Of a stretch of DNA of 64,000 bases, positions 1,000 through 57,312 are shown piece by piece. Source of the DNA: Dehalococcoides mccartyi (GTDB taxonomy: Bacteria; Chloroflexota; Dehalococcoidia; GIF9; DYGU01). A program made the translations under genes and the position numbers. The DNA is taken from positions 13,210-77,209 of the forward strand of contig DYGU01000006.1 in the NCBI GenBank assembly GCA_020724525.1. Reading direction: 5' to 3'. Under the pieces are notes generated by a model that was not told the origin of the DNA, searched no databases, and was given only the letters and a program-made list of their open reading frames with translations. Positions within the stretch are counted from its first letter, which is position 1; each line of letters starts with the position of its first letter.

Positions 1000-1186
1000 A
1001 CTATACATTACCTGGGTCAAAAGTGATATTGGCCATTCCAGAGACCAGCGACAGACTCTGAAGGCTTTGGGCTTCCATCGGCTTGGACAAACGATAGCCA
1101 AAGAAGACTCACCATCCATACGGGGCATGGTGACTAAGGTGAAACATTTGGTTGAAGTTGAGGCAGTTGAAAATGAAGCAAAATGA
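983..1186 (+). CDS. rpmD: 50S ribosomal protein L30
   Basis: 67 aa protein with an L30-like sequence ([27 protein letters not shown]). It overlaps the rpsE stop, which is typical. Confidence 0.85.
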
Positions 1187-1616: not shown

Positions 1617-1617
1617 A

Positions 1618-2934
1618 ATGCGGCAAAGGGAAGGGAGACCACGACTTCTTCAGGCGATGTTGGATGCCTTTACTCTACCTGATTTAAGGCGCAGATTTCT
1701 TATCACACTGGGTATTTTGGTAATCTTTCGCTTTGTAGCTCATGTGCCGTTACCCGGTGTTGACCTGGCTGCATTGCGAGACCTTTTTGAGCGAAATCAA
1801 CTTTTAGGTATGCTTGACCTGTTTAGCGGTGGTGCTATGAGGAATTTTGGCATTGCGGCTATGGGTGTTTTTCCTTATATAACGGCTTCTATTATCATGC
1901 AACTACTGATACCAGTTATTCCTCGCCTCCGGGCTCTTGCCCAGGAGGGAGAGGCTGGTAGACATAGGATTAACCTGATTACCCATTGGCTAACAGCACC
2001 CTTGGCAGCTCTTCAGGGCTATGCCCAAATCACCTTACTCAGGGGAGAGGGTATTATTGCTGACACCGAATTGTTACCAACCGTAGCTATGGTTCTCACC
2101 CTAACTGCCGGCACTATTTTTTGCGTCTGGCTTGGTGAACTCATCACTGAGCGTGGCATTGGTAATGGGATTTCTCTAATAATTTTTGCTGGTATTGTGG
2201 CTGGACTACCAGAAATGATCGGGCGAGGTTATCTGGCTAAAGAGAACTTTAGCGGTTTATTTGTTTTTATCATTCTGGGATTAGCCCTGGCTGTTGTTAT
2301 TGTTATATTCACTGAAGCTCACCGGCGTATTCCAGTCCAATATTCTCGAAGCGTTATGCGAGGGGGTCGGATGTATCGGCAGTCCGGGTCGACTCACATT
2401 CCATTGCGAGTAAACTCTGCTGGTATGATACCCCTCATTTTTGCTATGTCAGTAATGATTTTCCCCAGCACCATAGCCAGTTATCTGGCTCGCCCTCCCG
2501 GGCAAGACCCAAACTGGGCTAATAGAATTATGGAAATCTTTAGCCCTGAAGCTGCCCTTCCCTTAGGTCTCCTTTACTGGGGGTTATATTTTCTGTTTGT
2601 GATTGCTTTCGCCTTTTTCTATACCATGGTAATTTTCCAGCAGATGAATCTGGCACAAACTTTGCAGCGTCAAGGTGGTTTTATCCCTGGTATCCGTCCT
2701 GGGCGTCTTACGGACAATTACCTTAACCAGGTTATTACCCGGATTACCTGGGGAGGTGCTCTCTTCCTAGCAATGGTGGCAATTATGCCTTTTGTGGCTC
2801 GGGAAATTACTGATGTCGGAGCTTTAACCCTTGACAGCATCGGCTTGCTTATTGCGGTTGGTGTTGCTTTGGATACTATGAAACAAATAGAAGCTCAGCT
2901 CCTGATGCGCCGCTATGAAGGTTTCCTGAGATAG
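1618..2934 (+). CDS. secY: preprotein translocase subunit SecY
   Basis: 438 aa polytopic membrane protein with the conserved SecY plug and TM segments. Its position after rplO matches the operon. Confidence 0.9.
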   Translation: MRQREGRPRLLQAMLDAFTLPDLRRRFLITLGILVIFRFVAHVPLPGVDLAALRDLFERNQLLGMLDLFSGGAMRNFGIAAMGVFPYITASIIMQLLIPVIPRLRALAQEGEAGRHRINLITHWLTAPLAALQGYAQITLLRGEGIIADTELLPTVAMVLTLTAGTIFCVWLGELITERGIGNGISLIIFAGIVAGLPEMIGRGYLAKENFSGLFVFIILGLALAVVIVIFTEAHRRIPVQYSRSVMRGGRMYRQSGSTHIPLRVNSAGMIPLIFAMSVMIFPSTIASYLARPPGQDPNWANRIMEIFSPEAALPLGLLYWGLYFLFVIAFAFFYTMVIFQQMNLAQTLQRQGGFIPGIRPGRLTDNYLNQVITRITWGGALFLAMVAIMPFVAREITDVGALTLDSIGLLIAVGVALDTMKQIEAQLLMRRYEGFLR

Positions 2935-20023: not shown

Positions 20024-20132
20024 GGTTGTTTACCAACGCTTGTCCACCACCCTGAACAAGGCAGAGAAACCCTCACCTACCCTCTCCCTTGAAGGGAGAG
20101 GGATAAGGTGAGGGTGACAAAATAAACACTCT
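20024..20132 (+). repeat. intergenic repeat family A, full copy (~110 bp) with a central 10-bp-stem hairpin
   Basis: The left part is gttgtttaccaacgcttgtccaccaccctgaacaaggcagagaaaccc. The centre is cctctcccttGaagggagagg, a perfect 10+10 palindrome. The right part is ataaggtgagggtgacaaaataaacactctc. Related copies lie at 20766, 26262 (reverse), 34267 (reverse), 4641 and 38270. Confidence 0.7.
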
Positions 20133-20530
20133 CAATAAACCGTTTTTAGCTGTCTTTTGAGTCCTTCCTGGCATTCGCGGCGAGATAGACTGGGAGTCCA
20201 GTTGCGACAGGCTGCCGGTCGGAAAGGATAAATGGTGCGTACGGCCTTTTCCTCCTGGTATTTCAGGAAAACACAGGCGTCACCCTGGCGACGTAAGAGA
20301 TAAGTCCCTGGCTTCAGGGGATATTCCTGGATATATTTCTGGTAGAATTCAAGTACAGGCATATTTAAGGCTCGGGCTATAGTGGCAATTTCACCTTCAT
20401 CAATGGGTGGTTGCCATTTAGTGCAGCAAGTGCCGCAGCAAAGGCAGGGAATAACTTGAGGCTCAATTCCCCCACGCTGCAAATCATATTCTATTTCTTT
20501 CCAGCTTATAGTGCGTAAAATTACTTTCAT
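20132..20530 (-). CDS. YkgJ-family Fe-S/zinc-chelating protein (CxxCxxCC motif)
   Basis: CLCCGTCC...C motif. The start is placed at the internal Met MKVILRT. Confidence 0.55.
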   Translation of the reverse strand: MKVILRTISWKEIEYDLQRGGIEPQVIPCLCCGTCCTKWQPPIDEGEIATIARALNMPVLEFYQKYIQEYPLKPGTYLLRRQGDACVFLKYQEEKAVRTIYPFRPAACRNWTPSLSRRECQEGLKRQLKTVY

Positions 20531-20765: not shown

Positions 20766-20906
20766 GATTACCAATGCTTATCCACCATCCTGGGGGGTCA
20801 CCCTCCCTCTGACTCCCTCCCTTGACGGGAGGGAGTATCATTCCCCCCTACCCTCTCCCTTGAAGGGAGAGGAATAAGGTGAGGATGACAAAATAAAGAC
20901 TCTCAA
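20766..20906 (+). repeat. intergenic repeat family A copy with a duplicated hairpin module
   Basis: ttaccaatgcttatccaccatcctg is followed by ctccctcccttgacgggagggag, a second hairpin. That is followed by ccctctcccttgaagggagaggaataaggtgaggatgacaaaataaagactctc. Confidence 0.7.
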
Positions 20907-25878: not shown

Positions 25879-26163
25879 TTAGCTCTTTTGGCTCATATTT
25901 GAAACAATCCTGGCTGTCTTTTCTGGGATTCTTTCAATCAGCTCGGCAATTTTGGCAGTCCTTTCATCCATTCTTTCAAGCAGTTTTACTACTTCCTGAT
26001 GTCTCAATTCTGCTCTTTCATCCATTTTGGCAATTCTTTCATCCAGGTGTAACATCCTTTCATCCATTTTGGCAATAGCTTGCCTCATCAATTTTCCATT
26101 ATTCCAGGCTAAATAAGCAATCACAATTGAAAGCAAGGTAATAGCAAACCCGAAGATTTCCAT
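25879..26163 (-). CDS. small single-pass membrane protein with coiled-coil repeats (paralog 2 of 4)
   Basis: 94 aa with an N-terminal TM helix (FGFAITLLSIVIAYLAW). It is followed by AKMDER-type repeats (QAIAKMDERMLHLDERIAKMDERAELRHQEVVKLLERMDERTAKIAELIERI). Confidence 0.5.
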   Translation of the reverse strand: MEIFGFAITLLSIVIAYLAWNNGKLMRQAIAKMDERMLHLDERIAKMDERAELRHQEVVKLLERMDERTAKIAELIERIPEKTARIVSNMSQKS

Positions 26164-26261: not shown

Positions 26262-26340
26262 ATTGTTTATTTTGTCACCCTTCCTCAGGAAGGGTTTCTC
26301 CGCCTTGTTCAGGATGGTGGATAAGCATTGGTAAACAACC
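26262..26340 (-). repeat. intergenic repeat family A copy (reverse orientation, variant hairpin ccttcctcaggaagg)
   Basis: ttgtttattttgtcaccc...gggtttctccgccttgttcaggatggtggataagcattggtaaacaa is the reverse complement of the 20024 copy, with a substituted palindrome. Confidence 0.65.
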
Positions 26341-26737: not shown

Positions 26738-27343
26738 TTATTTGGTGGAACTCACCTCAGCCAGGGCATAATGAGGAGGAAGTATCCCTGTAGGACATAG
26801 AGAGAAGCACTCCCTACACCCAGTGCATTCCTTGCGGGCAATTTTGGGGAAAAACACTACCTCCCGTTGTGTTCCTCTTCCAATGAAACCAATAGCGTGC
26901 TTCTTCTTTATCTCAGCGCAGTAACGCACACATAACCCGCAAAGAATGCAGAAAGTTGGCTCCGTCTCAAACCTTGTTTTTATTTCATATCCTATTACAA
27001 ATTCCCTAATTGTTCGGACGCCAGTTATATCATACCTCATCCCGTACTCCCTTAAGGGTGCGATTCCAGGAGCACGAGCCCACATTAGCTCTAAAAGTAT
27101 CTTACGAATCTTGCTTAATCGATTAGTTTCTGTCTTTACTACAAGCCCATCTTCAGCTGGATAACAGTAAGAAGCTACTAATCGGGAGTGTTGTTCCCGA
27201 ACTATTTCCACAGTGCACAATCGGCACGCACCATAGGGAGCCAATTTTTCATGATGGCAGAGGGTAGGAATGTCAATTCCAACAGTTCGTGCTGCCTCAA
27301 GAAGAGTCATCCCTTCCTTAGCTTTGACTTTTTTTCCTGTCAA
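26738..27343 (-). CDS. 2Fe-2S plus multi-4Fe-4S ferredoxin-domain protein (NuoG/HndC N-terminal-module-like, no catalytic domain)
   Basis: 201 aa. It carries the Cys cluster C-x10-C-x2-C (2Fe-2S), a HxxxC..C His-ligated 4Fe-4S, and the CILCGLCVRYC and CTGCRECFSLCP ferredoxin motifs. It is the last gene of the NuoE/NuoF-like operon. Confidence 0.7.
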   Translation of the reverse strand: MTGKKVKAKEGMTLLEAARTVGIDIPTLCHHEKLAPYGACRLCTVEIVREQHSRLVASYCYPAEDGLVVKTETNRLSKIRKILLELMWARAPGIAPLREYGMRYDITGVRTIREFVIGYEIKTRFETEPTFCILCGLCVRYCAEIKKKHAIGFIGRGTQREVVFFPKIARKECTGCRECFSLCPTGILPPHYALAEVSSTK

Positions 27344-27369
27344 TAATTAAATTGATTGTGCTCATTTTT

Positions 27370-29290
27370 CTACCCTCGCTTTCGTATTACTTGTGTGCCT
27401 AATGGAACTGGCTCAGGTATTTTTGTACTTGGAAGCTTAACTACGGCACCAAAGCGGGGAGGACAAACTTCAAGGCAGGTACCACAGTTGGTACATTTAT
27501 TCTGGTCTATAATATGGACTAAGCTCTTACCACCATTAATAGCCTCCACTGGACAGTCCCGGAAGCAAATAAGGCAAGCCTGGCACTGGCTGGGTTCAAT
27601 ATAGTAGGCTATCAACCCTTTACAAACGCCAGCTGGACAATACTTTTCTCTTATGTGTGCTTCATACTCGTCTCTAAAGTATTTAATTGAAGTCAGCACA
27701 GGATTAGCGGCTGTAGTCCCTAAAGCGCAAAGGGAAGCGTCGGTGAGCACCTCGGCAATCTCTTCCAGTAAACCAATATCTTCTTCTTTCCCTTCTCCCC
27801 GGCGAATCCTATCTAAAACTTTGAGCATCTGGTATATTCCTTCCCGACAGGGGACACACTTACCACAAGACTCCTCGGTAAGAAAATTTAAGAAGTAACG
27901 TGCCGTATCCACCATGCAAGTGTCCTCATCCATTACTATCATCCCACCAGAACCCGTCATGGAGCCGAGTTTGGAGAGTTCATCAAAGTCAACCGGGGTA
28001 TCCAGGAATTGTTCTGGGATTACTCCACCGGAAGGTCCACCTGTTTGAACTGCTTTAAACTTTTTGCCTTCACGAATTCCGCCACCGATTTTGTAAATGA
28101 TATCTCTCAGGGTTATCCCCATCGGCACTTCTACAAGTCCGGTATTATTTACTTTGCCTACAAGTGAGAATATCTTTGTTCCTTTACTTCCCTCGGTGCC
28201 AAGGGACCTAAACCAATCAGCACCGTTGTTAATAATCAGCGGGACATTTGCCCAGGTTTCCACATTATTGAGGTTGGAAGGCTTTTCCCAAATTCCCTTG
28301 ACTTGCAGTGCGGATGTATTTTGGTCTCGGCTCGCCTACTTTTCCTTCTATCGCTGTCATGAGTGCGCTTGATTCACCAGAGACAAAGGCTCCAGCACCC
28401 CGATGAATAGTGACCTTAAAGTTAAAGCCGGAGCCGAGAATATCTTCTCCTAAAAACCCATATTCTTCAGCTTGCTTTAGGGCAATTTCTAAGTTTTCCA
28501 CAGCCAGAGGATACTCTTGCCGCACATAAACGAATCCCTGGTGCGAACCAATAGCATAAGCTCCGATGATTAAGCCCTCAAGCACACTGTGTGGGTTTTC
28601 CTCCATAAGGCCCCGATCCATATAAGCACCAGGGTCTCCTTCATCACAGTTAACAATAACATATTTAGGTTCTCCTGGAGCCTTGCGGCAGGTTTTCCAT
28701 TTCCTTCCGGCAGGGAACCCTCCGCCACCTCTACCCCTAAGGTCCGCCCTGTCCACTTCGGCTAAAACCTCCTCCGGGGTCATCTCAAAGAGGGCTTTGG
28801 TTAATGCCCGATATCCTCCAAGAGCAATGTAGTCCTCTATACTCTTCGGATTAAGTTTAGAATTATTAGCAAAAATAATCTGGGTCTGATATTTATAAAA
28901 GGGGATTTCGTGTTTATAAACTATCTTTTCGCCCGTGGTAGGGTCAATATAAAGCAGTCTGTCACTAACCTCCTCTTTAGCTGTCCTGTCCACGATTTCT
29001 GGTATATCCTCTGGTTTCACATTGCAGTAACCTGTCCCTTTGGGGGAAACTACGACTATCGGTTCTTTTTCACAAAATCCATGGCAGCCAGTGCTCCTAA
29101 AATCTATCTTTTACTCCAAGCCTTTCTTTGTGAGTTCTTCTATAAAAGCAGCGGCAACTTCCTGGCTCCCATAGGCAAGGCAACCAGTGCCACTACAGAG
29201 GGAAATGCAAAGTTTGTTCGGGTCCCTTTTTAATAAAATATCCTTTCTAAATTCTTCAAGCTCTTTTGGTGATGAAAACCGCTTAGTCAC
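27370..29290 (-). pseudogene. NuoF/HymB-like NAD(P)H-binding 51-kDa-type subunit, interrupted by an in-frame TAA and a +1 frameshift
   Basis: Hand translation from GTG 29290 gives a thioredoxin-like 2Fe-2S domain (CISLCSGTGCLAYGS ... TGCHGFCEKEP). An in-frame TAA splits it at 29111..29113. The FMN/NADH domain follows (GRGGGGFPAGRKWK). The reading frame then shifts by +1 near 28285..28300: ...[12 protein letters not shown] is in one frame and [18 protein letters not shown] in the next. It continues to the [10 protein letters not shown] and [12 protein letters not shown] Fe-S motifs. The track shows this as two ORFs, 28265..29020 and 27370..28263. Confidence 0.7.
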
Positions 29291-29767
29291 TTATTCCTCC
29301 TGACCATAGCTTTGGAGAATCTCTCCTACTTTGGAAACCGAGAGTTTGCCGTGATACTTCCTACCCACCACCATCACCGGTCCCAAAGCACAACAACCAA
29401 GACAATTGACGCTTTTCAAACTGAATTTCAGGTCCGGTGTTGTACCACCTGGAGATATGCCAAGAAATTGCTGGGCTCGTTCCAGTATATGCGGCGAACC
29501 ACGAACATGACACGCGGTACCCAAGCAGACAGTAACTTGATGGCGCCCTCGTGGTATCAGGCTAAAAGCTTTGTAGAAGGTAGCTATATGATAAATTTGG
29601 GTCAGAGGAACACTAAGCCTCTCGCTGAAGTGTATTAGAGCATCTTTAGACAACCACCGGTTTTCTCGTTGAACATGGAGGAGCACTTGAATTAGGAACG
29701 CCTTGTCAGCTCCATATTTATTTATAATTTCATCAATTTTGGTAAGCTCTAACACCATTTCCATCAC
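29291..29767 (-). CDS. NuoE/HymA-like thioredoxin-fold 2Fe-2S subunit (24-kDa-type)
   Basis: 158 aa with the CLGTACHVRG...CLGCCALGP Cys pattern of NuoE. It sits directly upstream of the nuoF-like gene. Confidence 0.85.
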   Translation of the reverse strand: MMEMVLELTKIDEIINKYGADKAFLIQVLLHVQRENRWLSKDALIHFSERLSVPLTQIYHIATFYKAFSLIPRGRHQVTVCLGTACHVRGSPHILERAQQFLGISPGGTTPDLKFSLKSVNCLGCCALGPVMVVGRKYHGKLSVSKVGEILQSYGQEE

Positions 29768-29779
29768 CTCTTTAGCTCT

Positions 29780-30766
29780 TTAAAACCCTTTCTGTCCAGT
29801 AACTCCACCACCAGCTTTGCCCCTTTTTTTGGCTAAAGCCTCATGTCTGGCAACTAACTTGGCTTGGCGTTTAGCTAACTTCACCCAAAAAGCATCTTCC
29901 ATCGTTTGACCGAATTCGCAGTTGGCACAGTGGAAAGCTCGGGAGCAGAGACGGTAAGAGATGTCACCTTTAAGAGCATAGCGGCAAAGTCTCTGGTTTC
30001 CGGGCAATGCCTTTAGCCTTTCTAAGGCAGCGGCAATTTCTGGTGACTCACCGGCAGTCTGCATCTGCTGGTCAAATTCGCAGGTAAGACAATCGTAATC
30101 CTTAGTGCATACCCGGTAAGAAACAACACCCATCTTCATCCAGACGCAGGGCTTAGCGACTTCCGTAGCCGTTACTTCAATTGCTGGTGCTGCCGCTTCT
30201 GTTTTTGCCTTCCGGATCCAGACCCTCGCCGCCAGGTTACCTGGTGCCATCTCCAGTATCCTCTCAAATTCCGCTATTGCTGCCGAATAGTCCCCCTCCT
30301 TGAAGAAGTCCTGACCTAAGGACAGGTACGTGGCAATCTCCTCTTCCAGTTTGCTCACTTCATCTTTCTTCTCCTCCATAATCACTTCTGGGGCAGCCAT
30401 TGGCTTAGCTTCAAGGACTTCCCTGATTAGTTGCTCCAGAGACTCAGGGGCAAATGGTTTAACCAGATAATCTATAGCTCCAGCTTTGGCGGCTTCTACC
30501 GCTGTTTCCACAGACGGATAAGCAGTAATAATGATTGCCTTTAAGGTTGGAATTTGCTCTTTAGCTTCCTTTAAGACCTGGATACCGTCTTTGCCAGGAA
30601 GTTTAAGGTCAAGGACGGCAACACCGCACTCCTGTTTTTTAATTATTTCCAGAGCCTGTTCTCCATCCTCAACAGCAACCACTTCCTGCCCCTCACTCGT
30701 TAGCCAGTCTCTTAATGACTCCCTGACGATGGTTTCATCTTCCACTAACAAAATGGGTTTTGTCAT
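29780..30766 (-). CDS. response regulator: REC domain + helical/TPR-like linker + tandem C-x5-C-x2-C Cys-rich output domain
   Basis: The N-terminal REC has the phospho-acceptor context (VLDLKLPGKDG). The C-terminal half contains two repeats: YRVCTKDYDCLTCEFDQQMQ and YRLCSRAFHCANCEFGQTMED. There is no HTH. It is the first gene of the operon with the nuoE/nuoF-like genes, downstream of a sigma-54-type promoter. Confidence 0.7.
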   Translation of the reverse strand: MTKPILLVEDETIVRESLRDWLTSEGQEVVAVEDGEQALEIIKKQECGVAVLDLKLPGKDGIQVLKEAKEQIPTLKAIIITAYPSVETAVEAAKAGAIDYLVKPFAPESLEQLIREVLEAKPMAAPEVIMEEKKDEVSKLEEEIATYLSLGQDFFKEGDYSAAIAEFERILEMAPGNLAARVWIRKAKTEAAAPAIEVTATEVAKPCVWMKMGVVSYRVCTKDYDCLTCEFDQQMQTAGESPEIAAALERLKALPGNQRLCRYALKGDISYRLCSRAFHCANCEFGQTMEDAFWVKLAKRQAKLVARHEALAKKRGKAGGGVTGQKGF

Positions 30767-30805: not shown

Positions 30806-30821
30806 CGCAATTTTCGTGCCA
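30806..30821 (-). promoter_or_regulatory. candidate sigma-54 (-24/-12) promoter TGGCAC-N5-TTGC
   Basis: The minus strand reads TTGGCACGAAAATTGCG. It has GG at -24, GC at -12 and an exact 5-nt spacer. The Cys-rich response regulator start codon lies ~40 nt downstream. rpoN and an NtrC-type activator are encoded immediately upstream. Confidence 0.5.
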
Positions 30822-30825
30822 AAAC

Positions 30826-30860
30826 AAGAAACTACCCTGATAACTTCAGGGTAGTTTCTT
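30826..30860 (-). terminator. perfect 15-bp inverted repeat (terminator of the NtrC-type gene and/or activator binding site)
   Basis: aagaaactaccctga-taact-tcagggtagtttctt. On the minus strand it is followed by GTTTT, which runs into the -24 element. Confidence 0.45.
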
Positions 30861-30924
30861 GTTTGTGTCGATTCGCTTTTATGGCTGATGAAGACTACAT
30901 CATAAGTATAAAGAAATTAAACAG

Positions 30925-32286
30925 TCATTTGTCTATTTTATTTACAACAAGGTCATGTGTTTTTACCTTGTTATAGAGGGTCATTCGAGTGATGCCTAAT
31001 ATTTTTGCCGCCTGGCTCAGGTTTCCTTTAGTTTGTCTAAGTACACTCAGGATGTGGCTCTTTTCCAATTCTTTGAGGCTCTTGTCACTGCTCACAGGAG
31101 CTAAAGGTAGATTTTGGTAAGCCAGGTCAGCTAAAGTTACCAGGCTATCTTTAGCTAAAATAACAGCTCTTTCAATGGCATTTTCCAATTCTCGGACATT
31201 GCCCGGCCAGTGGTATTTCAGAAGGAATTCTTTAGCTTCGGGGGCAAAGCCAGCTATTTCTTTTTGATTTTCCAGAGAGAACTTTTTTAGAAAGTGCTCC
31301 GCCAGAAGGGGAATATCTTCCCTTCTTTCTCTTAAAGGTGGTAAATCTATAGTTACCACATTCAGCCGATAATAAAGGTCTTCTCGGAATTGACCTTGCG
31401 CCACCGCTTTTTTCAAGTCTTTGTTAGTAGCTGAGATAATACGCACATTTACTTTTATAGGCTCATTGCCACCCACCCGAGTGAATTCTTTTTCCTCAGT
31501 GACTCTCAGTAAATGAACCTGGGTGTTAGGGCTTATGTCTCCTATTTCGTCGAGAAACAAAGTGCCCTTATTAGCATATTCAAACTTACCCTTTTTTTGG
31601 GCAATAGCACCAGTGAAAGAACCTTTTTCGTGCCCAAAAAGCTCACTTCCTAAAAGAGTCTCTGAAAGAGCGGCACAGCTTATGGCAACAAAAGGCTTGT
31701 CCTTGCGGGGACTCAAATTATGGACCGCTCGAGCAATAAGTTCCTTACCACTGCCGCTTTCTCCAGTAATCAAGACAGTAGCGTTGCTCTTAGCTATTAC
31801 CTTCACCATTTCAAAAATTTGTTGCATTCGATTACTTTTGGCGATGATATTTTCAAAACGATAGCGGTCTTCCAGTTTCTGGCGCAAGGAGATATTTTCC
31901 TTTATTAGCTTCTGGTGCTCCACCAATTTTTTGATGACCAATTCTACTCTCTCGGGACAGAAAGGCTTCTCAATATAGTCGTAAGCACCCTCTTTGATAG
32001 CAGCAATAGCTGTAGCTATACTGCCATAAGCGGTAATGATAATTATTGGAATATCAGGTGAGAGTTCCTTTACTCTTTTGGTTAACTCGATTCCGTCCAT
32101 CCCCGGCATTACCAAGTCAGCAATAATAATGTCTGGAGTTTCTCTTTGAGCCAGTTGTAAGGCTTCACTCCCATTAGAAGCCGTGGAGACGCTGTAGCCG
32201 ATGTCTTTCAGCCACTCCCAGAGGGACTCGCGGATACTGGCTTCGTCATCAACGATTAAAATCCTGGCTGTTTCCTTCAATGGCAA
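30925..32286 (-). CDS. sigma-54-dependent transcriptional response regulator (NtrC family: REC + AAA+ + Fis-type HTH)
   Basis: 453 aa. The REC domain has DDEASIRESL...D. The AAA+ domain has Walker A GESGSGKE, the GAFTGA-type motif GSFTGA, and an ESELFGHEKG loop. The C-terminal HTH is QAAKILGITRMTLYNKVK. Confidence 0.85.
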   Translation of the reverse strand: MPLKETARILIVDDEASIRESLWEWLKDIGYSVSTASNGSEALQLAQRETPDIIIADLVMPGMDGIELTKRVKELSPDIPIIIITAYGSIATAIAAIKEGAYDYIEKPFCPERVELVIKKLVEHQKLIKENISLRQKLEDRYRFENIIAKSNRMQQIFEMVKVIAKSNATVLITGESGSGKELIARAVHNLSPRKDKPFVAISCAALSETLLGSELFGHEKGSFTGAIAQKKGKFEYANKGTLFLDEIGDISPNTQVHLLRVTEEKEFTRVGGNEPIKVNVRIISATNKDLKKAVAQGQFREDLYYRLNVVTIDLPPLRERREDIPLLAEHFLKKFSLENQKEIAGFAPEAKEFLLKYHWPGNVRELENAIERAVILAKDSLVTLADLAYQNLPLAPVSSDKSLKELEKSHILSVLRQTKGNLSQAAKILGITRMTLYNKVKTHDLVVNKIDK

Positions 32287-34238
32287 GCCTCCAGATAAAC
32301 AGTGAAAGTGGTTCCCTTACCTACCTCGCTATCAACCTTGATTCTACCCTTGTGCCTTTGGATAATGCCATGCACTACTGCCAGCCCCAAGCCAACCCCT
32401 TTCTCCCTCTCTTTGGTAGTGAAAAAAGGAGTGAACAATCGGCGCCTATTTTCTTTAGGGATACCACAGCCAGTGTCGGCTACATCTACTTTAACCCACT
32501 CTTGCTTCTTGCCACCGACTCCCTCTTCAGATATTATCTCTGTCTGCAAGGTTAATCTCCCCCCTTGAGGCATAGCCTGGACAGCATTAAGGATGAGATT
32601 GGTAAAAACCTGACAGAGCTGGTCAAAATCAGCCGTGACCAGACAGCCCTCACCACGGAATTTCTTAACTATTTCCACATTTTGCAATTGAGCTTGATGG
32701 CTGACCAAAGACAAAGCTTGGTCAATAACTTGGTTAGCATCAACTACTTTCAATCTTGGCTCAGACTGTCGGGCAAAATCGAGCAGATTTCGAATTATTC
32801 CGGAACTGCGGCTGACTTCAGCTTCTATTTTTGATAGATAACTCAAGGCTTCTTCTTTAGGTAATCCATCACCACCTAATCTTTTAGACAGGAGTCGGGC
32901 ATAAACTAAAACCCCAGTTAAGGGATTATTTAGTTCGTGAGCAATAGCTGCGGCTAATTGTCCCAGAGAAGTTAATTTTTCCGCCTGAATAAGCTGTTCC
33001 TGAGTTGCCTTTAGGCGCTTGACGACAAAGGGCCAGCACATTTCATTCTCGGCTAAGCCGCGGTAGATAGCAATAGCTTTTTCCCGGCAGGTTTTATAGC
33101 CGCAGGCACCACAGTTGAGTTCATCCTCGGGCTTGGTCTTGTCGGTCAAACTCAAAACACCTCGGATTTCTTCTTCAGTGGGGTAGGGGAGGGAGATATA
33201 GCGATTGGTAAACCGTCGCCTTAAATTTAGATCGCCATATCTTATTAAGTCTTTTTCCGTCTGCTCTGGGTCGGTTTCTTTCAAGGTGTATTCAGTAATA
33301 ATTTGTTTTTTCTTAAAATAATTTAATTCGCTTCTAATTGACGGACCGCTGACACAACCTTCACACATAAAAAGCTCAGCGAAGTTAACTCTAATGTCCC
33401 CTTTGTCAATCTCGTGAATAATTTCCAGCACCCTTTCGGCACCTTCCCCCACTACAGCCTCTTTATCCAAAGGATCGGTGGAAACTCCGATTGCTTTACA
33501 AAATCCACCAGAAATAGCACATAATCGCCCCAAATTTGGTTTGGGACCGAAAAAGGGAGTCTCCCCTAAACTGGCCGGGTCGATAGCTTTTTGGGCAAGA
33601 AGTTCTTCAAGTTCATCAAAGGTTAAAACAGCGTCAATTACACCACCTACCTTCTCATCATCCCGCTCTGCCCTCTTGGCAACACTGGGGGCGATAAAGA
33701 CCACCTTTGTCTCAGGTGGGTAGTATTTCTTAATCAACCTACCCATAGCAATCATGGGGGGCACAATAGGCGCTAAGTTATCAATTAACTGGGGGTAATA
33801 TTTCTCAATATAATAGACTACAGCCGGACATTGAGCGCTAATAATTGGTTTTTGCTTGCTTGTCTTTATTAGTTTTCGGTATTCCTGAATAATGAGGTCA
33901 GCACCAAAGGCTCCTTCTACTACTTGGTTGAACCCCAGTTCTAAGAGAGCAGTTACCAGTTGCCTTGGGCGGATTTCGGGAAAGGCTACCGGGAAGGAAT
34001 AATCAAGGCAAGCGATAGGTGCCGGGGATTTACTCAGTAAAACCCTTGTCGCTCCGATATCGCTTTCTATTTGCTTGGCTTTCTGGCTACAGACTCGGAC
34101 ACAGTTACCACAAGCAATACACCGTTCCTTCATCACTTCAGCCAAGCCCTCTTCCACTTTAATGGCATTAGCTGGACAGCTACGGATACAAGCATAGCAA
34201 CCCTTGCAATTGTCTTTATTAGTGAAGATGACCGCCAT
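32277..34238 (-). CDS. sensor histidine kinase with N-terminal 2x[4Fe-4S] ferredoxin + degenerate [FeFe]-hydrogenase H-cluster-like domain (HydS-like sensory module)
   Basis: 653 aa. The N-terminus has CKGCYACIRSCP and CIACGNCVRVC ferredoxin motifs. A ~300 aa region follows with hydrogenase-like L1/L2/L3 remnants (SAQCPAVV, IAPSVAKRAE with Cys replaced by Ser, ELFMCEGCVSGP). HisKA (AAAIAHELNNPLT) and HATPase_c (GCGIPKENRRRLFTPFFTTK...GLGL) domains follow. It overlaps the NtrC-type gene by 10 nt. Confidence 0.8.
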   Translation of the reverse strand: MAVIFTNKDNCKGCYACIRSCPANAIKVEEGLAEVMKERCIACGNCVRVCSQKAKQIESDIGATRVLLSKSPAPIACLDYSFPVAFPEIRPRQLVTALLELGFNQVVEGAFGADLIIQEYRKLIKTSKQKPIISAQCPAVVYYIEKYYPQLIDNLAPIVPPMIAMGRLIKKYYPPETKVVFIAPSVAKRAERDDEKVGGVIDAVLTFDELEELLAQKAIDPASLGETPFFGPKPNLGRLCAISGGFCKAIGVSTDPLDKEAVVGEGAERVLEIIHEIDKGDIRVNFAELFMCEGCVSGPSIRSELNYFKKKQIITEYTLKETDPEQTEKDLIRYGDLNLRRRFTNRYISLPYPTEEEIRGVLSLTDKTKPEDELNCGACGYKTCREKAIAIYRGLAENEMCWPFVVKRLKATQEQLIQAEKLTSLGQLAAAIAHELNNPLTGVLVYARLLSKRLGGDGLPKEEALSYLSKIEAEVSRSSGIIRNLLDFARQSEPRLKVVDANQVIDQALSLVSHQAQLQNVEIVKKFRGEGCLVTADFDQLCQVFTNLILNAVQAMPQGGRLTLQTEIISEEGVGGKKQEWVKVDVADTGCGIPKENRRRLFTPFFTTKEREKGVGLGLAVVHGIIQRHKGRIKVDSEVGKGTTFTVYLEACH

Positions 34239-34266
34239 TTTCGCTAACCTTTCTAAAGTTATTAAA

Positions 34267-34340
34267 GAGAGTGTTTATTTTGTCACCCTCACCTTATTCC
34301 TCTCCCTTCAAGGGAGAGGGTAGGTGAGCGTTTCTCCACT
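34267..34340 (-). repeat. intergenic repeat family A copy (reverse orientation, truncated)
   Basis: gagagtgtttattttgtcaccctcaccttattcctctcccttcaagggagagggtaggtgagcg is the reverse complement of the hairpin core of the 20024 and 20766 copies. It lies between rpoN and the kinase gene. Confidence 0.65.
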
Positions 34341-34345
34341 TAAGA

Positions 34346-35443
34346 TTATTTATTTGTCATTGCCAAGAGTCTCCTTTGTCGTGAGGATGGGATTTTTAGC
34401 TCTTTCCTGAGACTGGCTATAGTACGTCGGGACAGATATACGCCAAATTTCCTCTCCAGACTAACCTTTATTTTCTGGTCACTAAGAGGTTTTGCCTCTT
34501 GTTCAAGAATTTGCTTGAGCAACTCCTTTCGGAACTTCTTAGGGTTTGGGAAAAAGTCTTTAAGTGCTCTTTCGCCCCAGGGAGTTTCAAGACTTTTATT
34601 AGCGATAACTCGGCTGATAGTGCTTGGGGTTAAGCCAATTTTGGATGCCAGTTCCTTTTGACTGAAAGGCAACAACGCTTTTGGGTTGCCCGATTCAAAA
34701 AATGGAGTTTGCTTTTCAACAATGTTCTGTATTACCTGGTGTAAACTATTTTTCCGGCTATTTATTAACTCTAACTTTCGTAAGAGCTGCCTTATCTCTT
34801 TGACTTCGGTATTGTTGAAAACTCCGTCGTGGAGTAACTGTTCCAGCTTCATATAATCAACAACAAATTTACCTCGGGCATAAGCTGGGGAGAAGTAAGC
34901 AACAGATAACCCCTCAGTTCCCCTTTCTATTGCGGCAACTTTGGAATAATGTTTTCCTTTGTCTGAGATAGAAGAAGGGTGGTAGAACTCGGTGGCAATG
35001 GAAAATTCGTCAATAAGACTGTTTATTTTAGACACTTCTGAAACTTCCAGCTGACACTGGTGGGCAATTTCCTCAACAGTAATCCCGGGCTCCGGGTATA
35101 AGAAATATTGTTTGAAATTGTCTATACCCAGATTTCTGATTAGACCAACCAGTTCCTCTTTATTGGCGATCAAAGATTCCACATCAACCGAGCTTGGGGC
35201 GGCGACAATTTCCTCTTTAAGTTCATAAAAACGGCGAGAAAGATTGGCTTTTGGGAATCGTTGATAGTGAATTACCTTCTCTTGTTCCCGGAGGCGCTTA
35301 AATAGTGAGCTCTTTTCTACCCCAAAAATTAAATACTGGAACTCCACTTCCGACATTTCCAGCAAATTGGCCTGCTCTATTCGGAGAAAAAGTTTGAGTT
35401 CTTGTCTTGTTTCCAGAGATTGGGTTATGTTTGGATTTACCAC
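34346..35443 (-). CDS. rpoN: RNA polymerase sigma-54 factor (short form)
   Basis: 365 aa. The C-terminal RpoN box (YLSRRTIASLRKELKIPSSRQRR) and the HTH (ASKIGLTPSTISRVIANKS) are present. The Leu/Gln-rich N-terminal region I is short. The protein is shorter than typical RpoN (450-500 aa). Confidence 0.8.
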   Translation of the reverse strand: MVNPNITQSLETRQELKLFLRIEQANLLEMSEVEFQYLIFGVEKSSLFKRLREQEKVIHYQRFPKANLSRRFYELKEEIVAAPSSVDVESLIANKEELVGLIRNLGIDNFKQYFLYPEPGITVEEIAHQCQLEVSEVSKINSLIDEFSIATEFYHPSSISDKGKHYSKVAAIERGTEGLSVAYFSPAYARGKFVVDYMKLEQLLHDGVFNNTEVKEIRQLLRKLELINSRKNSLHQVIQNIVEKQTPFFESGNPKALLPFSQKELASKIGLTPSTISRVIANKSLETPWGERALKDFFPNPKKFRKELLKQILEQEAKPLSDQKIKVSLERKFGVYLSRRTIASLRKELKIPSSRQRRLLAMTNK

Positions 35444-35514
35444 TGTAAAAATATTTTACTACTCCTGGGCGAATGGGGCAAACTGACGGGGACAGAATTT
35501 TCCCCCGGGCCTCA

Positions 35515-35817
35515 CTATCCCCTCTGCAAGGATCGAGCTATCATCTCCTGACCTTCCTGGAGCCTTGTAAATCCTTCCTTGAGGTGCCTGGCTATTGACT
35601 GTTGCCCCTCACTAATCTCTTTTAGCCCGTCCATAAGCACTTTCTGTCCTTCCCTAATCTCTCTTAGCCCGTCCATAAGCGCTCTTTGCCCGTCAACAAG
35701 CGCTTTTTGCCCGTCCATAAGCAACCTCATATTGCGTCCATTTGCTCTCCAGATATAAGCAAGGATTACACCGAGAAAAGCCAGGGCTGCTCCTATCATT
35801 CCTGTGGCTATTTCCAT
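35515..35817 (-). CDS. small single-pass membrane protein with coiled-coil repeats (paralog 3 of 4)
   Basis: 100 aa with the TM helix MIGAALAFLGVILAYIW. It carries LMDGQ-type decapeptide repeats (LLMDGQKALVDGQRALMDGLREIREGQKVLMDGLKEISEGQQ). Confidence 0.5.
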   Translation of the reverse strand: MEIATGMIGAALAFLGVILAYIWRANGRNMRLLMDGQKALVDGQRALMDGLREIREGQKVLMDGLKEISEGQQSIARHLKEGFTRLQEGQEMIARSLQRG

Positions 35818-36006
35818 TTATGGTCTCCTTCTGATTTTTTCAAACTTCTCACCTGATAATATCCCCGTTTCCGATTTTAGTCAAGGAAGAATTTGAGATT
35901 GATTATTGCTGCCTGGTCAGTGGGCTCGGTCTCGTTATAACAGCCGGGGAGAGAGAAACATCCGAGTAATCGGTTCGGCAGACCCAGGCGGAAACGATTT
36001 TTATCC

Positions 36007-36408
36007 TTAACCCTTTAAAGGACCAAGGGCTCTCACCTTTTCCGTCATTTCATTTACGACAGAGACAAAGCGGTCACCTTCTGAAGCTGACACCCAGTCC
36101 AATCTCAGTCTTTCCTCTTCAATCCCCATCTGGACTAACATTTTCTTTAGTAATGGTATACGCCGTATAGTCTTATAATTACCTTCGGTATAATGACAAT
36201 CTCCGGGGTGACAACCAAGAGCCAAAACTCCATTAGCACCCAACTAGAAAGCCTTAAGGATAAAGGTAAGCTCCACTCTGCCACTACACATTACTCTTAT
36301 TGTTCTGACATTATGGGCACACTTCATCCTGGCTGTCCCAGCCAGGTCTGCTCCCCGGTAGGAACACCAGTTACACAGGGAACCGATAATCTTAGGTTTA
36401 AAGCTCAT
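36007..36408 (-). pseudogene. MvhD-like hydrogenase/heterodisulfide-reductase-associated Fe-S subunit with an in-frame TAG
   Basis: Hand translation from ATG 36408 gives [54 protein letters not shown]. An in-frame TAG (36244..36246) follows. It then continues LGANGVLALGCHPGDCHYTEGNYKTIRR..., which is the MvhD signature. The track shows only the distal 78 aa. Confidence 0.65.
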
Positions 36409-36431
36409 ACTAATACCCCCCTATTCTAATT

Positions 36432-36790
36432 CCTAAATCTTTTCAATATATGACCTCAGGTCACCCAGATACCCCTCCATTTCGTCGAAGCTTAAAGTGC
36501 CATCGTAGTAACCTTGTATGTGAAAGACATCTCTGAGAAATAAATAATGCCATCTAAGCTCTCTGTCAGCATATTTGAAAACCAAGTATCTTCTCCCCCT
36601 ATCGCCTGAGGTAGCTGCTCTTCTTTGATTCCCTTCTTAATCAAAAGACTATGAGTAGCTTCTATGGTGGAGAACCAACTTTTGGCACAAGCATCCCTTA
36701 AAAGTGTGCCGTCATTTTTCTGTCTTGCCCTGTCAAACTCCTCAAATGCCTTTTCGTAGAGCCTTCTTGCTTCTTTCAGATGATTTTCTG
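36432..36790 (-). pseudogene. small helical (HEPN-like?) gene remnant with a frameshift and no canonical start
   Basis: The minus strand reads ...LSSENHLKEARRLYEKAFEEFDRARQKNDGTLLRDACAKSWFSTIEATHSLLIKKGIKEEQLPQAIGG. It then continues in the +1 frame (RRYLVFKYADRELRWHYLFLRDVFHIQGYYDGTLSFDEMEGYLGDLRSYIEKI). A strong AAGGAGAT Shine-Dalgarno-like sequence lies upstream but no ATG/GTG/TTG start follows. The family assignment is uncertain. Confidence 0.3.
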
Positions 36791-36793
36791 AAC

Positions 36794-37933
36794 TCAGATT
36801 ATCTCCTTAACATCTTTAATTTCAATAACATCAGCTTTATCCATAGTAAGCACGCTGTCATCAAAATTGAGGATACAGTAAGGGTAGGCTGTGGCTAAAA
36901 CTTCAGCTCCAACATCTATTGCCTGCTCTAACCTTATGTCCGAAAATCTTTCACCTTTTTTGGTTTCCTGCCAGATTCTGCCGCCACCACCACAGCAAAG
37001 GCTATTTTCTCGGCTATCCGGCATTTCCAGAAAATCCAGACCTAGAATGCTCTGTAGCAATTGCCGCGGGGTGTCGTATATATTGTTATGCCGCCCTAAG
37101 TAGCACGGGTCATGATAAGCTACCTTTTTCTTAATTTCCTTCCTAAACTTTAATCTTCCTTCTTCAAGTAGTTGCCTCAGGTACTGAGTGTAATGAAGGG
37201 TCTCAAAATTACTGCCAAGCTTAGGGTATTCATTTTTGAAGGTATGATAGCAATGGGGAAAGCTAACCACGACTGTCTTCATACCTTTTCCCCTAAAAGT
37301 AACGATGTTGCTCCTGGCTAACTTCTCAAAAAGCTCTTCATTCCCAGCTTTCCTAACGCTTTCGCCACAGCAGAGCTCTTCCGAGCCTAAAATACCAAAA
37401 TCTACCTCGGCTTTCTTAAAGATGTTAGCTAAAGAATGAGACATTCTTTTTACCTTAGGGTCATAAGCAGACACACAGCACGAAAAATATAAAAGCTCCT
37501 TATCTGGAGAAAACCTTTCTACACCCAAATCTTTCGCCCAATCGGCTCGCCTTTCGGCGGCTTCTCCCATAGGATTGCCCACAGCAGAGATATTTTCCAT
37601 AGTAAGTCTCAGTGAATCAGGCACATAACCTACCCCAAATCCTACTGGAATTCTACGCACAGCCCTCATGACATCTATTATCTCCACCCCTCGGGGACAC
37701 CGTTCAACACAAGCCCGACAGGTGACACAGAGCCACCAGATTTCGTCTTCAAAGTTAACCAGCCCTAATTATGTCTGACGCACCATCCGGCGAACAATGA
37801 AACTTCTCACCTGATTCCAGGGACAAATCCCACTACAGAGACCACATTGATAACACAGTTTAAAAGCTTCACCACCGGCTTCTTTTATGAAATCCAGAGT
37901 TTCTCGAGATGGGCTTACTGCCTGTACAGCCAT
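36794..37933 (-). pseudogene. HdrD/GlcF-like Fe-S oxidoreductase (4Fe-4S ferredoxin + two CCG domains) with an in-frame TAA
   Basis: Hand translation from ATG 37933 gives MAVQAVSPSRETLDFIKEAGGEAFKLCYQCGLCSGICPWNQVRSFIVRRMVRQT. An in-frame TAA (37769..37771) follows, then LGLVNFEDEIWWLCVTCRACVERCPRGVEIIDVMRAVRR... The 297 aa track ORF follows, carrying CCG motifs (FSCCVSAYDPKV, LCCGES, HDPCYLGRHN, LCCGGGG). Confidence 0.65.
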
Positions 37934-38117
37934 AATGTTTCTCCTTTTTTAGCCTATTATTTTTCTTCAGACAAACAAAAAAGGTAGTTATTTAGCCAAG
38001 TATTAGCGACATAACTACCGGGAAACAAAAGATAAATTTGAGCCAACATTACGCGGGTATTCTAAAACAGTTTTCAGCCTTTTGACAATGCCTTTTGTAA
38101 AAGAGTATTTATCAACC

Positions 38118-38300
38118 CCATTCTGTCATTGCGAGAGGCGTTAGCCCCGAAGCAATCCCAAGAGATTGCCGCGCTTCTTACACCCAGCCGAATCCTAGAT
38201 TCGGCTGGGAACCCGGTGTCGCCACAAAATCATAGATTTTGTGGGGTGTTCTTCGCTCGCAATGACGGGTAAGCATTAGTAAACATCTCTCTTGCAATGA
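38118..38300. repeat. intergenic repeat family B: MITE-like element with terminal inverted repeats (gtcattgcgag / ctcgcaatgac) and two internal hairpins
   Basis: gtcattgcgagaggcg...cagccgaatcCTAgattcggctg...ccacaaaatcATAgattttgtgg...ctcgcaatgac is followed by taagcattagtaaaca, a family A fragment. Partial relatives lie at 25770 and 26475. Confidence 0.6.
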
Positions 38301-38381
38301 TTTTTTAAAATGTAATCTCCTTTAATAGAGGGAGTAGGGTGAACTTTTATATGATAAAATAGCTGCTATTGATACTTATTC

Positions 38382-48068: not shown

Positions 48069-48169
48069 TGTGGTTGGAGGCGTATTTGGTCACACAAATA
48101 CCATAGCGCCCGAATTTGTGAACATTGACTTTCACCCTGTTATCTGGTAATTTAGCCACAAAGTAAATA

Positions 48170-48333
48170 ATGTTGTTGGGGTGCCCGAGGGTGACTGAGG
48201 GCTTAATTTGGTAGCAAGCCGGTGGGATTCCGGCGCAGTTCCGCTTGCTGTAACAGCCAGAACGCCAGCCCCGATAAACAAGACTGCCTCCGCGGAGTAA
48301 GGGGGTAGAGCTTATTTTTAAAAAGGCTCTTAA
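48170..48333 (+). promoter_or_regulatory. cobalamin (B12) riboswitch
   Basis: ggtgcccgagggtgactgagggcttaatttggtagcaagccggtgggattccggcgcagttccgcttgctgtaacagccagaacgccagcccc carries the conserved GGTGGAATTCC-like loop and GCGCAGTTCCGCTTGCTGTAA. The B12-box AGCCAGAACGCC is present. The region is nearly identical in core to the element at 57160. Confidence 0.75.
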
Positions 48334-56833: not shown

Positions 56834-57159
56834 CTCACACCTCCATTTCCGTTTCCTGCTTCTATCAACCCTTATATCTTTTTAATCTGCTACCTCCAGT
56901 TTAGGAAACTGAATAGGGGCTGTCAAGGCAGTAGCTTTAATAAATTTGTCTACGCACGTTCTCAGGCTCCTTTTGGGCTGAAGTATATTGACTTTAGTAA
57001 TACTCGGTCTTCCCATGGGTAAAAAGGGCATAGATTAAAAAGCTTAATTTGAGGTCTAGCCTTATAAGTTCCCTTAAAGTCAACGCCTGCTTCAACAGGG
57101 CTTGACTTTTTCACTGGTTCTGCTATACTAACCACAAAATAAAATAAATTGTTTAGGTT

Positions 57160-57312
57160 GAGGTGCCCGAGGGCAATCGAGGGCTTAATGGGAAAGCAAG
57201 CTGGTGGAATTCCGGCGCAGTCCCGCTTGCTGTAACAGCCAGAACGCCTGCCTCAACAACAATAACCACCTCCGCGGAGTCAGGGGGCAGGGTTTTTTAG
57301 TTAGCTTCTAAA
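57160..57312 (+). promoter_or_regulatory. cobalamin (B12) riboswitch
   Basis: ggttgaggtgcccgagggcaatcgagggcttaatgggaaagcaagctggtggaattccggcgcagtcccgcttgctgtaacagccagaacgcctgcctcaac has a closed P1 stem (ggttgagg...cctcaac). The AATGGGAA, GGTGGAATTCC and GCAGTCCCGC motifs are present. The B12 box AGCCAGAACGCCTGCC is present. Confidence 0.8.

Follow-up and report, generated by a model that had tools for sequence, protein, structure and literature searches.

Can a sigma-54 factor belong to a single circuit? As a rule, sigma-54 is regarded as a factor for the whole genome, its gene lying apart from those of its many activators. The question is raised by a locus in a stretch of 64,000 nucleotides (nt) from an assembly assigned to Dehalococcoides mccartyi (Chloroflexota, class Dehalococcoidia; GCA_020724525.1, contig DYGU01000006.1, positions 13,210 to 77,209 of the forward strand), hereafter called the window. 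The genes of a short sigma-54-like protein, a histidine kinase with a hydrogenase-type sensor and an NtrC-type activator stand there in a row, ahead of a sigma-54 promoter. An earlier note on this DNA had described the three genes as one sigma-54 signalling unit. Our analysis leads us to think it probable, with considerable room for doubt, that uncultured Dehalococcoidia possess here a sigma-54 regulatory cassette that is self-contained.

The genes of the cassette and those behind its promoter are all encoded on the minus strand, and the coordinates are positions in the 64-kb window. Read along that strand, the order is sigma-54-like gene, histidine kinase gene, NtrC-type activator gene, terminator hairpin, promoter, a gene for a response regulator with REC, TPR and Cys-rich parts (REC-TPR-Cys), and the genes for NuoE-like, NuoF-like and small iron–sulphur (Fe-S) proteins. 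Lengths are given in amino acids (aa), and genes were delimited as open reading frames (ORFs):

35443..34346, minus strand: short sigma-54-like factor, 365 aa (ORF and Pfam Sigma54_DBD)
34238..32277, minus strand: histidine kinase, 653 aa (ORF and Pfam domains)
32286..30925, minus strand: NtrC-type activator (bacterial enhancer-binding protein), 453 aa (ORF and Pfam)
30946..30906, minus strand: candidate enhancer (upstream activating sequence), an imperfect palindrome that straddles the activator stop codon (window sequence)
30826..30860, minus strand: hairpin of 15 bp with a 5-nt loop, then a T-run (window sequence)
30821..30807, minus strand: sigma-54 (-24/-12) promoter TGGCACGAAAATTGC (motif search)
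30766..29780, minus strand: REC-TPR-Cys response regulator, 328 aa (Pfam REC and TPR)
29291..29767, minus strand: NuoE/HydC-like [2Fe-2S] thioredoxin-like ferredoxin, 158 aa (Pfam 2Fe-2S_thioredx, E 1.1e-47)
27370..29281, minus strand: NuoF/HydB-like gene, disrupted (Pfam matches on two pieces)
26738..27366, minus strand: gene for a small protein with [2Fe-2S] and 2x[4Fe-4S] motifs, 5' end frameshifted (Pfam Fer2_4 and Fer4)

All four regulatory ORFs are intact in the window, which holds one sigma-54 gene, one sigma-54 activator and one intergenic -24/-12 site. The genes had been described as co-oriented and as overlapping or abutting. They share an orientation, and the kinase and activator genes overlap by ~10 nt; the sigma-54-like and kinase genes do not abut, being separated by a spacer of 107 nt. 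The span first assigned to the unit (32277-35443) covers these last two genes only, the activator gene and the promoter lying outside it.

A scan of one genome per species gave 78 loci (designated below by L numbers), most of which came from metagenome-assembled genomes (MAGs) of Dehalococcoidia or Dehalococcoidales. The order sigma-54-like, kinase, NtrC-type activator, REC-TPR was kept in most of the Dehalococcoidia-type loci, the promoter followed the activator in 39 of 41, and a full-length hydrogenase-type kinase was encoded in 43. Behind the REC-TPR gene stood either NuoE/NuoF/small Fe-S genes or genes of the CCG/HdrA/MvhD type, depending on the locus. Judged by this conservation, the cassette is a real conserved unit, as the earlier note had proposed. 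Distant relatives of the short sigma-54 (31-48% identity) were found in Elusimicrobia, Clostridia and Planctomycetia.

Elusimicrobia/Clostridia-like bins (L068, 10589-14951; L063, L064 and L071) carry a short sigma-54 and an activator, followed by a -24/-12 site and different genes. Read from their translations, these were a ketoacyl synthase with two B12-type radical SAM enzymes in one set and an XRE-cupin regulator in another.

The kinase begins with two ferredoxin-type [4Fe-4S] motifs and continues with an [FeFe]-hydrogenase H-domain, a Cx2Cx4Cx16C motif, HisKA (His434) and HATPase_c. Pfam located two Fer4 domains (residues 6-54, with Cys motifs at 11-21 and 40-50), Fe_hyd_lg_C at residues 66-299 (E 1.7e-48) and the FeS domain PF04060 at 374-402, in which Cys376, Cys379, Cys384 and Cys401 form an exact Cx2Cx4Cx16C. 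The protein is cytoplasmic, has no membrane segment and contains up to four Fe-S sites, the last of them adjoining the dimerization and histidine phosphotransfer (DHp) helix. Sequence matches of the sensor in the PDB were HDCR HydA2, TmHydA and CpI. An AlphaFold2 (AF2) model of residues 1-413 had a mean predicted local distance difference test score (pLDDT) of 79 and a predicted template modelling (TM) score of 0.78; in Foldseek it aligned with CbA5H, TkHydA1, DdH and CpI at query-normalised TM scores of 0.66-0.71 (E ~1e-18). By sequence and predicted fold the sensor is a true [FeFe]-hydrogenase H-domain. The proposed input module of two 4Fe-4S motifs plus a hydrogenase-like domain was thus recovered by both profile search and structure prediction (TM ~0.7), and the lack of structural similarity to the H-domain that the earlier note had named as refuting its reading was not observed.

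The H-cluster motifs read as had been reported: ISAQCPAVV at L1 (one Cys), APSVAKRAE at L2, where Ser185 (codon AGT) occupies the position of the expected Cys, and LFMCEGCVSGP at L3 (two Cys). The window kinase, with Ser185 at L2, does not have the full set of four H-cluster Cys ligands. We surveyed these motifs in 120 close cluster representatives of the kinase. The L2 Cys was present in 108, and nine fell outside the search pattern; it was replaced only in the window protein (Ser) and in two of the relatives nearest to it, P0122 (Gly) and P0124 (Asp), and other near relatives retained it. Because the Cys is so widely kept, the description 'degenerate' given earlier fits, on the aligned motifs, this small subclade only and not the family. 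At L1 the relatives have S-[TNSQ]-C-P (SAQCP in the window), with CCP in none of the 120, and Cx2Cx4Cx16C was found in every one. The position of Met353 is Gly, as in TmHydS. Most family members retain all four Cys ligands and the AKKAE motif with Lys358 and Glu361, the residues that serve the [2Fe] subsite in real hydrogenases (from CpI).

The same architecture is known from the M2e and M2f subclasses, putative sensory group C/D [FeFe] hydrogenases such as TmHydS and TamHydS, which have two N-terminal [4Fe-4S] motifs, have lost Cys299, have Met353 replaced and end in a Cx2Cx4Cx16C motif (PMC8163306). A class '[FeFe] C1, histidine kinase-linked (putative)' is already present in HydDB (PMC5037454), and a kinase-fused group C hydrogenase has been noted in groundwater Elusimicrobia (bioRxiv 10.1101/765248). 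The window kinase is, by these sequence features, a new member of this known but uncharacterised class (HydDB C1, kinase-linked). It had been likened to both HydS and Narf; the comparison with HydS holds, and a Narf/Nar1-like identity was set aside, the architecture matching the group C/D sensors. With TmHydS and TamHydS it shares the two N-terminal [4Fe-4S] motifs, the loss of Cys299, the replacement of Met353, the Cx2Cx4Cx16C motif and the link to signalling. It differs in that the module is fused straight to HisKA-HATPase with no PAS domain, in its CxxC at L3 (CxxxC in group A enzymes), in its L2 Ser, and in its partners, which are an NtrC-type activator and a short sigma-54 here and a PP2C phosphatase, Rex or an AraC-type protein in other members.

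What, then, would the kinase sense? One alternative to H2 keeps the wiring and makes the kinase a pure redox sensor, with an H-domain that holds a [4Fe-4S] cluster only, or none, and no [2Fe] subsite; such a kinase would report the reduction of ferredoxin or NADH, possibly by docking on the NuoE, NuoF and small Fe-S proteins and rebuilding a HydABC-type layout. Several features speak for it: the only H-domain of the locus is that of the kinase, with none in the target operon; the NuoG-like small Fe-S protein corresponds to the N-terminal Fe-S part of HydA/NuoG, and the kinase to the F-cluster plus H-domain; the L2 ligand varies in the window subclade (Ser, Gly, Asp, Cys) while the cassette of a relative is intact; L3 is CxxC in 120 of 120 relatives, whereas group A enzymes have CxxxC; and the proton-transfer Cys299 of group A enzymes, lost in the window sensor, is always missing in its relatives. 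However, most members of the family retain the four Cys ligands, Lys358 and Glu361, and those group C/D enzymes that have been characterised and carry these substitutions do bind an H-cluster and show reactivity with H2 (PMC8163306). We therefore regard a pure redox sensor as a serious possibility, if an unlikely one.

The hydrogenase-type kinase is not the only one found at this position. In ~10 Dehalococcoidia loci a kinase of ~410 aa with a multi-pass membrane sensor takes its place (L011, L012, L013, L017, L022, L026, L034, L044 and L078; also L001, 4755-6066), and the kinase core is nearly identical; L001 carries both types. This points to the swapping of input domains on one signalling backbone.

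The activator gave Pfam matches to Response_reg (E 3.3e-33), Sigma54_activat (E 4.4e-73), the AAA lid and the Fis-type HTH_8 (E 2.5e-13). Asp57 lies in the REC domain, Walker A spans residues 175-182, and the loop at 222-227 reads GSFTGA. NCBIfam models returned AtoC-, NtrC- and ZraR-like matches, all below their equivalog cut-offs, so none of these specific names can be given to the protein. The GSFTGA sequence had been singled out as a variant of the GAFTGA loop. It is present, but the orthologues alternate between the two forms (GSFTGA 38 times, GAFTGA 18 times), and a special, co-evolved loop was rejected on this ground; the activator is an ordinary NtrC-type protein.

A palindrome, TGTAAAGAAA-N19-TTTCTTTACA, straddles the stop codon of the activator gene. 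Its strict form was found in 24 of the 41 loci, with near matches in many others, and the window copy is imperfect. Where the strict form is present, the distance from its centre to the -24 element downstream is mostly 81-104 bp, and otherwise 156-179 bp. As 81-104 bp is a usual distance for an enhancer, we counted the spacing in favour of the palindrome as a candidate enhancer to which the activator may bind. Between palindrome and promoter lies the hairpin, which abuts the promoter; an equivalent hairpin with a T-run stands directly before the -24 element in most related loci. It is probably the terminator of the regulatory operon. A simple terminator scan missed it, the tail having 4 T against the 5 required. 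The idea that it is the activator binding site was rejected: a T-run follows it, its sequence varies while the structure is kept, and a separate palindrome lies upstream.

The promoter, TGGCACGAAAATTGC, is a perfect TGGCAC-N5-TTGC 55 nt upstream of the REC-TPR ATG. Counted across the window, such motifs are not above chance (3 matches with at most one mismatch versus 3.9 expected), and the promoter is credible by its conservation in related loci rather than by that count. In 39 of 41 loci TGGCA[A/C]GAAAATTGCA lies between the activator and REC-TPR genes, with the consensus TGGCAAGAAAATTGCA. The element travels with the REC-TPR gene where that gene is placed elsewhere (L001), and precedes NuoE where it is missing (L061). 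The promoter therefore does sit directly downstream of the activator, as first reported, but NuoE is not the first gene behind it: the REC-TPR regulator comes first and NuoE second. A second perfect TGGCAC-N5-TTGC, at 2651 on the plus strand, was rejected as a promoter, lying inside an ORF (1618..2934).

Does the short sigma-54 serve this promoter only? It might instead be the general sigma-54 of these lineages, with many activators and promoters elsewhere, and a neighbourhood that implies no functional exclusivity. Its relatives in Elusimicrobia, Clostridia and Planctomycetia do stand beside other kinases, activators and targets, or have no activator within ~8 kb, and the subfamily is both large and varied: a HMMER search of 1.84 billion cluster representatives gave 277 clusters at 50% identity with E <=1e-30. 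On the other side, the linkage to the kinase/activator pair and the promoter is nearly invariant in Dehalococcoidia loci; across ~0.9 Mb of DNA flanking the loci, strict -24/-12 matches form a recurrent, evident promoter at one place only, behind the activator gene; and sigma-54 has been reported only sporadically in Chloroflexi (Francke et al. 2011, PMC3162934). A general role appears to us rather unlikely.

It remained to be seen how far the 365-aa protein is a sigma-54 at all. Its sole Pfam match was Sigma54_DBD, the DNA-binding domain (DBD; residues 211-358, E 1e-30), with a helix-turn-helix (HTH) PSTISRV at residues 273-279 and an RpoN box SRRTIASLR at 338-346. The family profile matched the sigma-54 chains of the PDB (E 1.5e-18), and hhalign against E. 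coli sigma-54 gave a probability of 98% and 38% identity over 143 columns, with STISR and RRT(I/V)A retained. By these residues the C-terminal half is clearly sigma-54, and the retained RpoN box and HTH fit the canonical sequence of the adjoining promoter. The curated RpoN model TIGR02395 aligned residues 125-358 with profile positions 192-434, at 119.1 bits against a cut-off of 277.35. This alignment begins upstream of the Pfam DBD match and reaches into what we presume to be the core-binding region.

The N-terminal 210 residues are highly conserved across the family, with a region-I-like pattern of Leu and Gln and the motif QSLQxRQEFKLxxRLEQANLLEMPEEEF; the candidate region I corresponds to about residues 8-50 of the window protein. 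In one family member, residues 2-61 aligned weakly and in register with positions 5-60 of the sigma-54 model NF004596 (E 0.013), and a non-significant HMMER stretch placed family profile positions 11-52 on residues 6-49 of E. coli sigma-54. The AF2 model was mediocre (overall pLDDT 66). Its top 30 PDB matches in Foldseek were all sigma-54 or SigN; the alignments, of ~380-440 columns, run the entire length of the protein and include the N-terminal half where the model is weak. Given that low confidence, core binding and contact with the activator are predicted at most.

The short sigma-54 has more than 650 close homologues of 340-390 aa. Among the best 150 clusters listed, nearly all were matched along their full length; 5164 clusters pass E 1e-10, a set that we take to include ordinary sigma-54 proteins matched by the DNA-binding domain alone. 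The subfamily is unnamed, and some of its members are labelled 'transposase' by the Joint Genome Institute (JGI). We conclude that the 365-aa protein is a divergent, compact sigma-54. Its sigma activity is inferred mainly from gene context: activators of the NtrC type and -24/-12 promoters depend on a sigma-54, and the short gene is always encoded beside them.

At L026, a locus from a Dehalococcoidales MAG, a 449-aa ORF divergent to the short sigma-54 gene (1053-2402, minus strand) combines a sigma-54 DBD (Pfam E 6.4e-9) with a weak C-terminal match to GIY-YIG nucleases (E 0.06).

That the 365-aa protein is no sigma factor and only a promoter-binding decoy or repressor with the DNA-binding half of sigma-54 would agree with the lone Pfam match, with the wide margin by which the curated RpoN models are missed and with the reuse of this domain in the L026 neighbour, but is very improbable in view of the strongly conserved, region-I-like N-terminal 210 residues, the TIGR02395 alignment from residue 125 into the presumed core-binding region, the whole-length Foldseek alignments, and the ever-adjoining activator with its GAFTGA-type loop and promoter.

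The genes behind the promoter were then compared with their counterparts elsewhere. The REC-TPR-Cys protein has a REC domain (Asp53), TPR and two C-x12-C-x5-C-x2-C-E-F repeats; neither a significant Pfam match nor any PDB match was found for its Cys-rich C terminus. The small Fe-S protein has no H-domain and is similar to the N terminus of NuoG/HydA. Taken together, the induced genes resemble components of an electron-bifurcating, flavin-based NADH/ferredoxin complex, namely HydB/HydC-like NuoF/NuoE with a small Fe-S protein and, elsewhere, Hdr/Mvh-like proteins.

In the window this gene set is damaged. The NuoF gene is interrupted by a TAA stop at ~29113..29111 and by a frameshift near 28300, and its orthologues are single ORFs of 639-656 aa. 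The gene of the small, NuoG-like Fe-S protein is frameshifted in a seven-A run near 27330; elsewhere it is a called gene of 211 aa (L082) or a stop-to-stop ORF of 218 aa (L040) or 225 aa (L037). An MvhD/FlpD gene (~36010-36410, minus strand) has an in-frame TAG near 36250, as read from the sequence and in agreement with a split gene call. In L001 the CCG and FlpD genes have HdrA between them; here it is missing. A close relative, L082 (GCA_042408205.1), with Asp at L2, has the same cassette with intact NuoE, NuoF (642 aa) and small Fe-S (211 aa) genes; in that assembly ThyX, FolD and formate-tetrahydrofolate ligase follow the Nuo-like genes. These lesions reflect either decay of the regulon in this population or errors of assembly; two of them are nonsense substitutions, a kind of change that speaks against simple homopolymer errors. 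The circuit of this contig thus seems partly eroded, with one H-cluster Cys ligand lost and the NuoF, NuoG-like and MvhD genes disrupted.

Some further features lie nearby. The JGI gene calls on the same contig, 109 kb long and from JGI metagenome 3300029893, also split a TatD gene. In other genomes the orthologues of the damaged genes are unbroken. At the usual place of HdrA, between CCG and MvhD, a reading of the translation gave a PaREP1/HEPN-like ORF with an apparent frameshift (36430-36785, minus strand). The CCG protein of the window (297 aa) does not have the N-terminal Fer4 part of its 382-aa L001 orthologue, and ~700 nt of non-coding DNA (37688-38381) lie upstream of its gene.

Several of these results weigh against a functional, self-contained cassette and must be set beside the evidence for it. 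The short sigma-54 fails the equivalog cut-off of TIGR02395 by far; neither Sigma54_AID (the activator-interacting domain) nor Sigma54_CBD (the core-binding domain) of Pfam was matched in 25 family members at E up to 10; and the pLDDT of the AF2 model is mostly <50 at residues 1-30 and 63-94, in its N-terminal half. The Ser in place of the L2 ligand and the lesions in the target genes both mean that the circuit may be non-functional in this copy. No catalytic hydrogenase is encoded in the target operon, a point against H2 as the signal, and the membrane-sensor kinases found in the same place indicate that the hydrogenase input module is exchangeable. The counts behind exclusivity cover the 64-kb window and the ~0.9 Mb of locus flanks; a canonical rpoN, additional activators or additional -24/-12 promoters may lie elsewhere in these genomes.

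If the locus nevertheless works as a self-contained cassette, it could do so as follows. The three regulatory genes would form an operon, probably read by the housekeeping sigma factor, that supplies the short sigma-54, the soluble kinase and the NtrC-type activator. The redox state of the kinase Fe-S chain would gate autophosphorylation at His434, and would itself be set by H2 at the H-cluster, if one is assembled (by HydEFG), or else by a pool linked to reduced ferredoxin or NADH. Asp57 of the activator would receive the phosphoryl group, as might Asp53 of the REC-TPR protein. Once bound to the palindrome at the end of its own gene, the activator would use ATP to open the closed complex formed by RNA polymerase and the short sigma-54 at the TGGCAC-N5-TTGC element just downstream. 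The output would be the REC-TPR-Cys regulator and then the NuoE, NuoF and small Fe-S proteins, or HdrA, MvhD and CCG elsewhere, as parts of an electron-bifurcating NADH/ferredoxin complex.

A bolder version can be put forward tentatively, and we think it improbable as a whole. In it the short protein would be the only sigma-54 of these Dehalococcoidia, a portable regulon of one promoter used in the manner of an extracytoplasmic function sigma factor, and the H-domain of the kinase would be the missing subunit of the NuoE/NuoF/small Fe-S complex: a split HydABC whose 'catalytic' subunit now serves as kinase input. The layout is speculation, in which the small Fe-S protein would stand for the N terminus of HydA and the kinase sensor for the rest of it, beside NuoE and NuoF.

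The surroundings of the cassette hold a dispersed repeat and small ORFs:

34267..34325, minus strand: copy of a dispersed hairpin-containing repeat ('family A') in the sigma-54-like/kinase spacer (repeat search), with its tail GGTGAGGGTGACAAAATAAACACTCT at 34293..34268
20076-20135 (plus strand), 20847-20906 (plus strand) and ~26265-26330 (minus strand): other copies of the repeat, the one at 26265 more diverged
35515..35817, minus strand: 100-aa ORF upstream of the sigma-54-like gene, its product having a transmembrane segment and a coiled-coil repeat

The family A repeat reported between the sigma-54-like and kinase genes is indeed there, within the 107-nt spacer. The unit is ~60 nt long and consists of a hairpin, CCCTCTCCCTTGAAGGGAGAGG, and the tail GGTGAGGGTGACAAAATAAACACTCT, with a longer upstream part, ATGCTTATCCACCATCCTG, in some copies. 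The tail element also occurs at 20107 and 20878 and, diverged, at 26265; none is expected by chance. Copies lie in both orientations and are always intergenic. In orthologous loci the gap between the sigma-54 and kinase matches is mostly ~20-50 nt, versus 107 nt in the window. A similar element stands at a different site in another Dehalococcoidia genome (L030, ~10900-10990). Rfam found no known RNA in the repeat or leader regions; elsewhere in the window it placed two cobalamin riboswitches (RF00174; 31.5 and 44 bits) at 48163-48287 and 57144-57269, both on the plus strand, which explain a 142-nt direct repeat, D2.

The 100-aa ORF contains five copies of a 21-nt tandem repeat (D1), and its place in the regulatory unit is doubtful. 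A second small ORF of like style, with an N-terminal transmembrane helix and short coiled-coil repeats, lies at ~25880-26160 on the minus strand; the repeats of the two read MDGQKAL... and MDERxAKMDER..., and neither ORF matches any Pfam family. Sigma-70-like sites at 35884..35856 and 35481..35453 are consensus matches only, in a number not above chance.

How does the cassette compare with known sigma-54 systems? The closest functional analogue of which we are aware is HoxBC-HoxJ-HoxA of Cupriavidus necator, composed of a regulatory [NiFe] hydrogenase, a kinase and an NtrC-type activator that acts at sigma-54 promoters. Both systems join a hydrogenase-type sensor to a kinase, an NtrC-family activator and a -24/-12 promoter before redox-enzyme genes; here, by contrast, an [FeFe]-type sensor is fused to the kinase, the cassette includes the sigma factor, and the targets include no catalytic hydrogenase subunit. 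Canonical RpoN proteins consist of AID, CBD and DBD, with short forms such as the sigma-N of Aquifex aeolicus, and in model bacteria rpoN sits in an lptB-rpoN-hpf neighbourhood. The window protein shares with them the DBD with its HTH and RpoN box and the TGGCA-N6-TTGC promoter, and its N terminus is region-I-like in pattern, but it has only 365 aa and no Pfam AID or CBD, scores 119 versus 277 bits, and is encoded beside a specific two-component system. Dedicated extra rpoN copies are known from the nif cluster of Rhodobacter capsulatus and as the RpoN paralogues of Cereibacter sphaeroides and Ralstonia. They resemble the present case in placing a sigma-54 gene beside the activator and target genes that it serves; those, however, are paralogues of a canonical rpoN in Proteobacteria, whereas no second rpoN is known here, and the protein is far more divergent and belongs to Chloroflexota.

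Searches of open-access papers found nothing relevant on sigma-54 in Dehalococcoidia or on hydrogenase-like kinases with sigma-54. In the papers covered, neither the subfamily of short sigma-54 proteins nor its tight linkage to one two-component system, one enhancer and one promoter in Dehalococcoidia is described.

Annotation would overlook or misname a divergent short sigma-54 that scores below the RpoN thresholds. Should these genomes have no other sigma-54, then sigma-54 can act as a dedicated factor for a single circuit, some phyla may have been wrongly scored as 'sigma-54 absent', and the cassette would offer a minimal natural system in which to study sigma-54 activation. The autophosphorylation of the kinase would provide a direct, testable output for group C [FeFe] hydrogenases, whose role in sensing is still unproven, and the cassette would tie hydrogenase-type sensing of this group to the electron-bifurcating Nuo/Hdr modules of abundant subsurface Dehalococcoidia.

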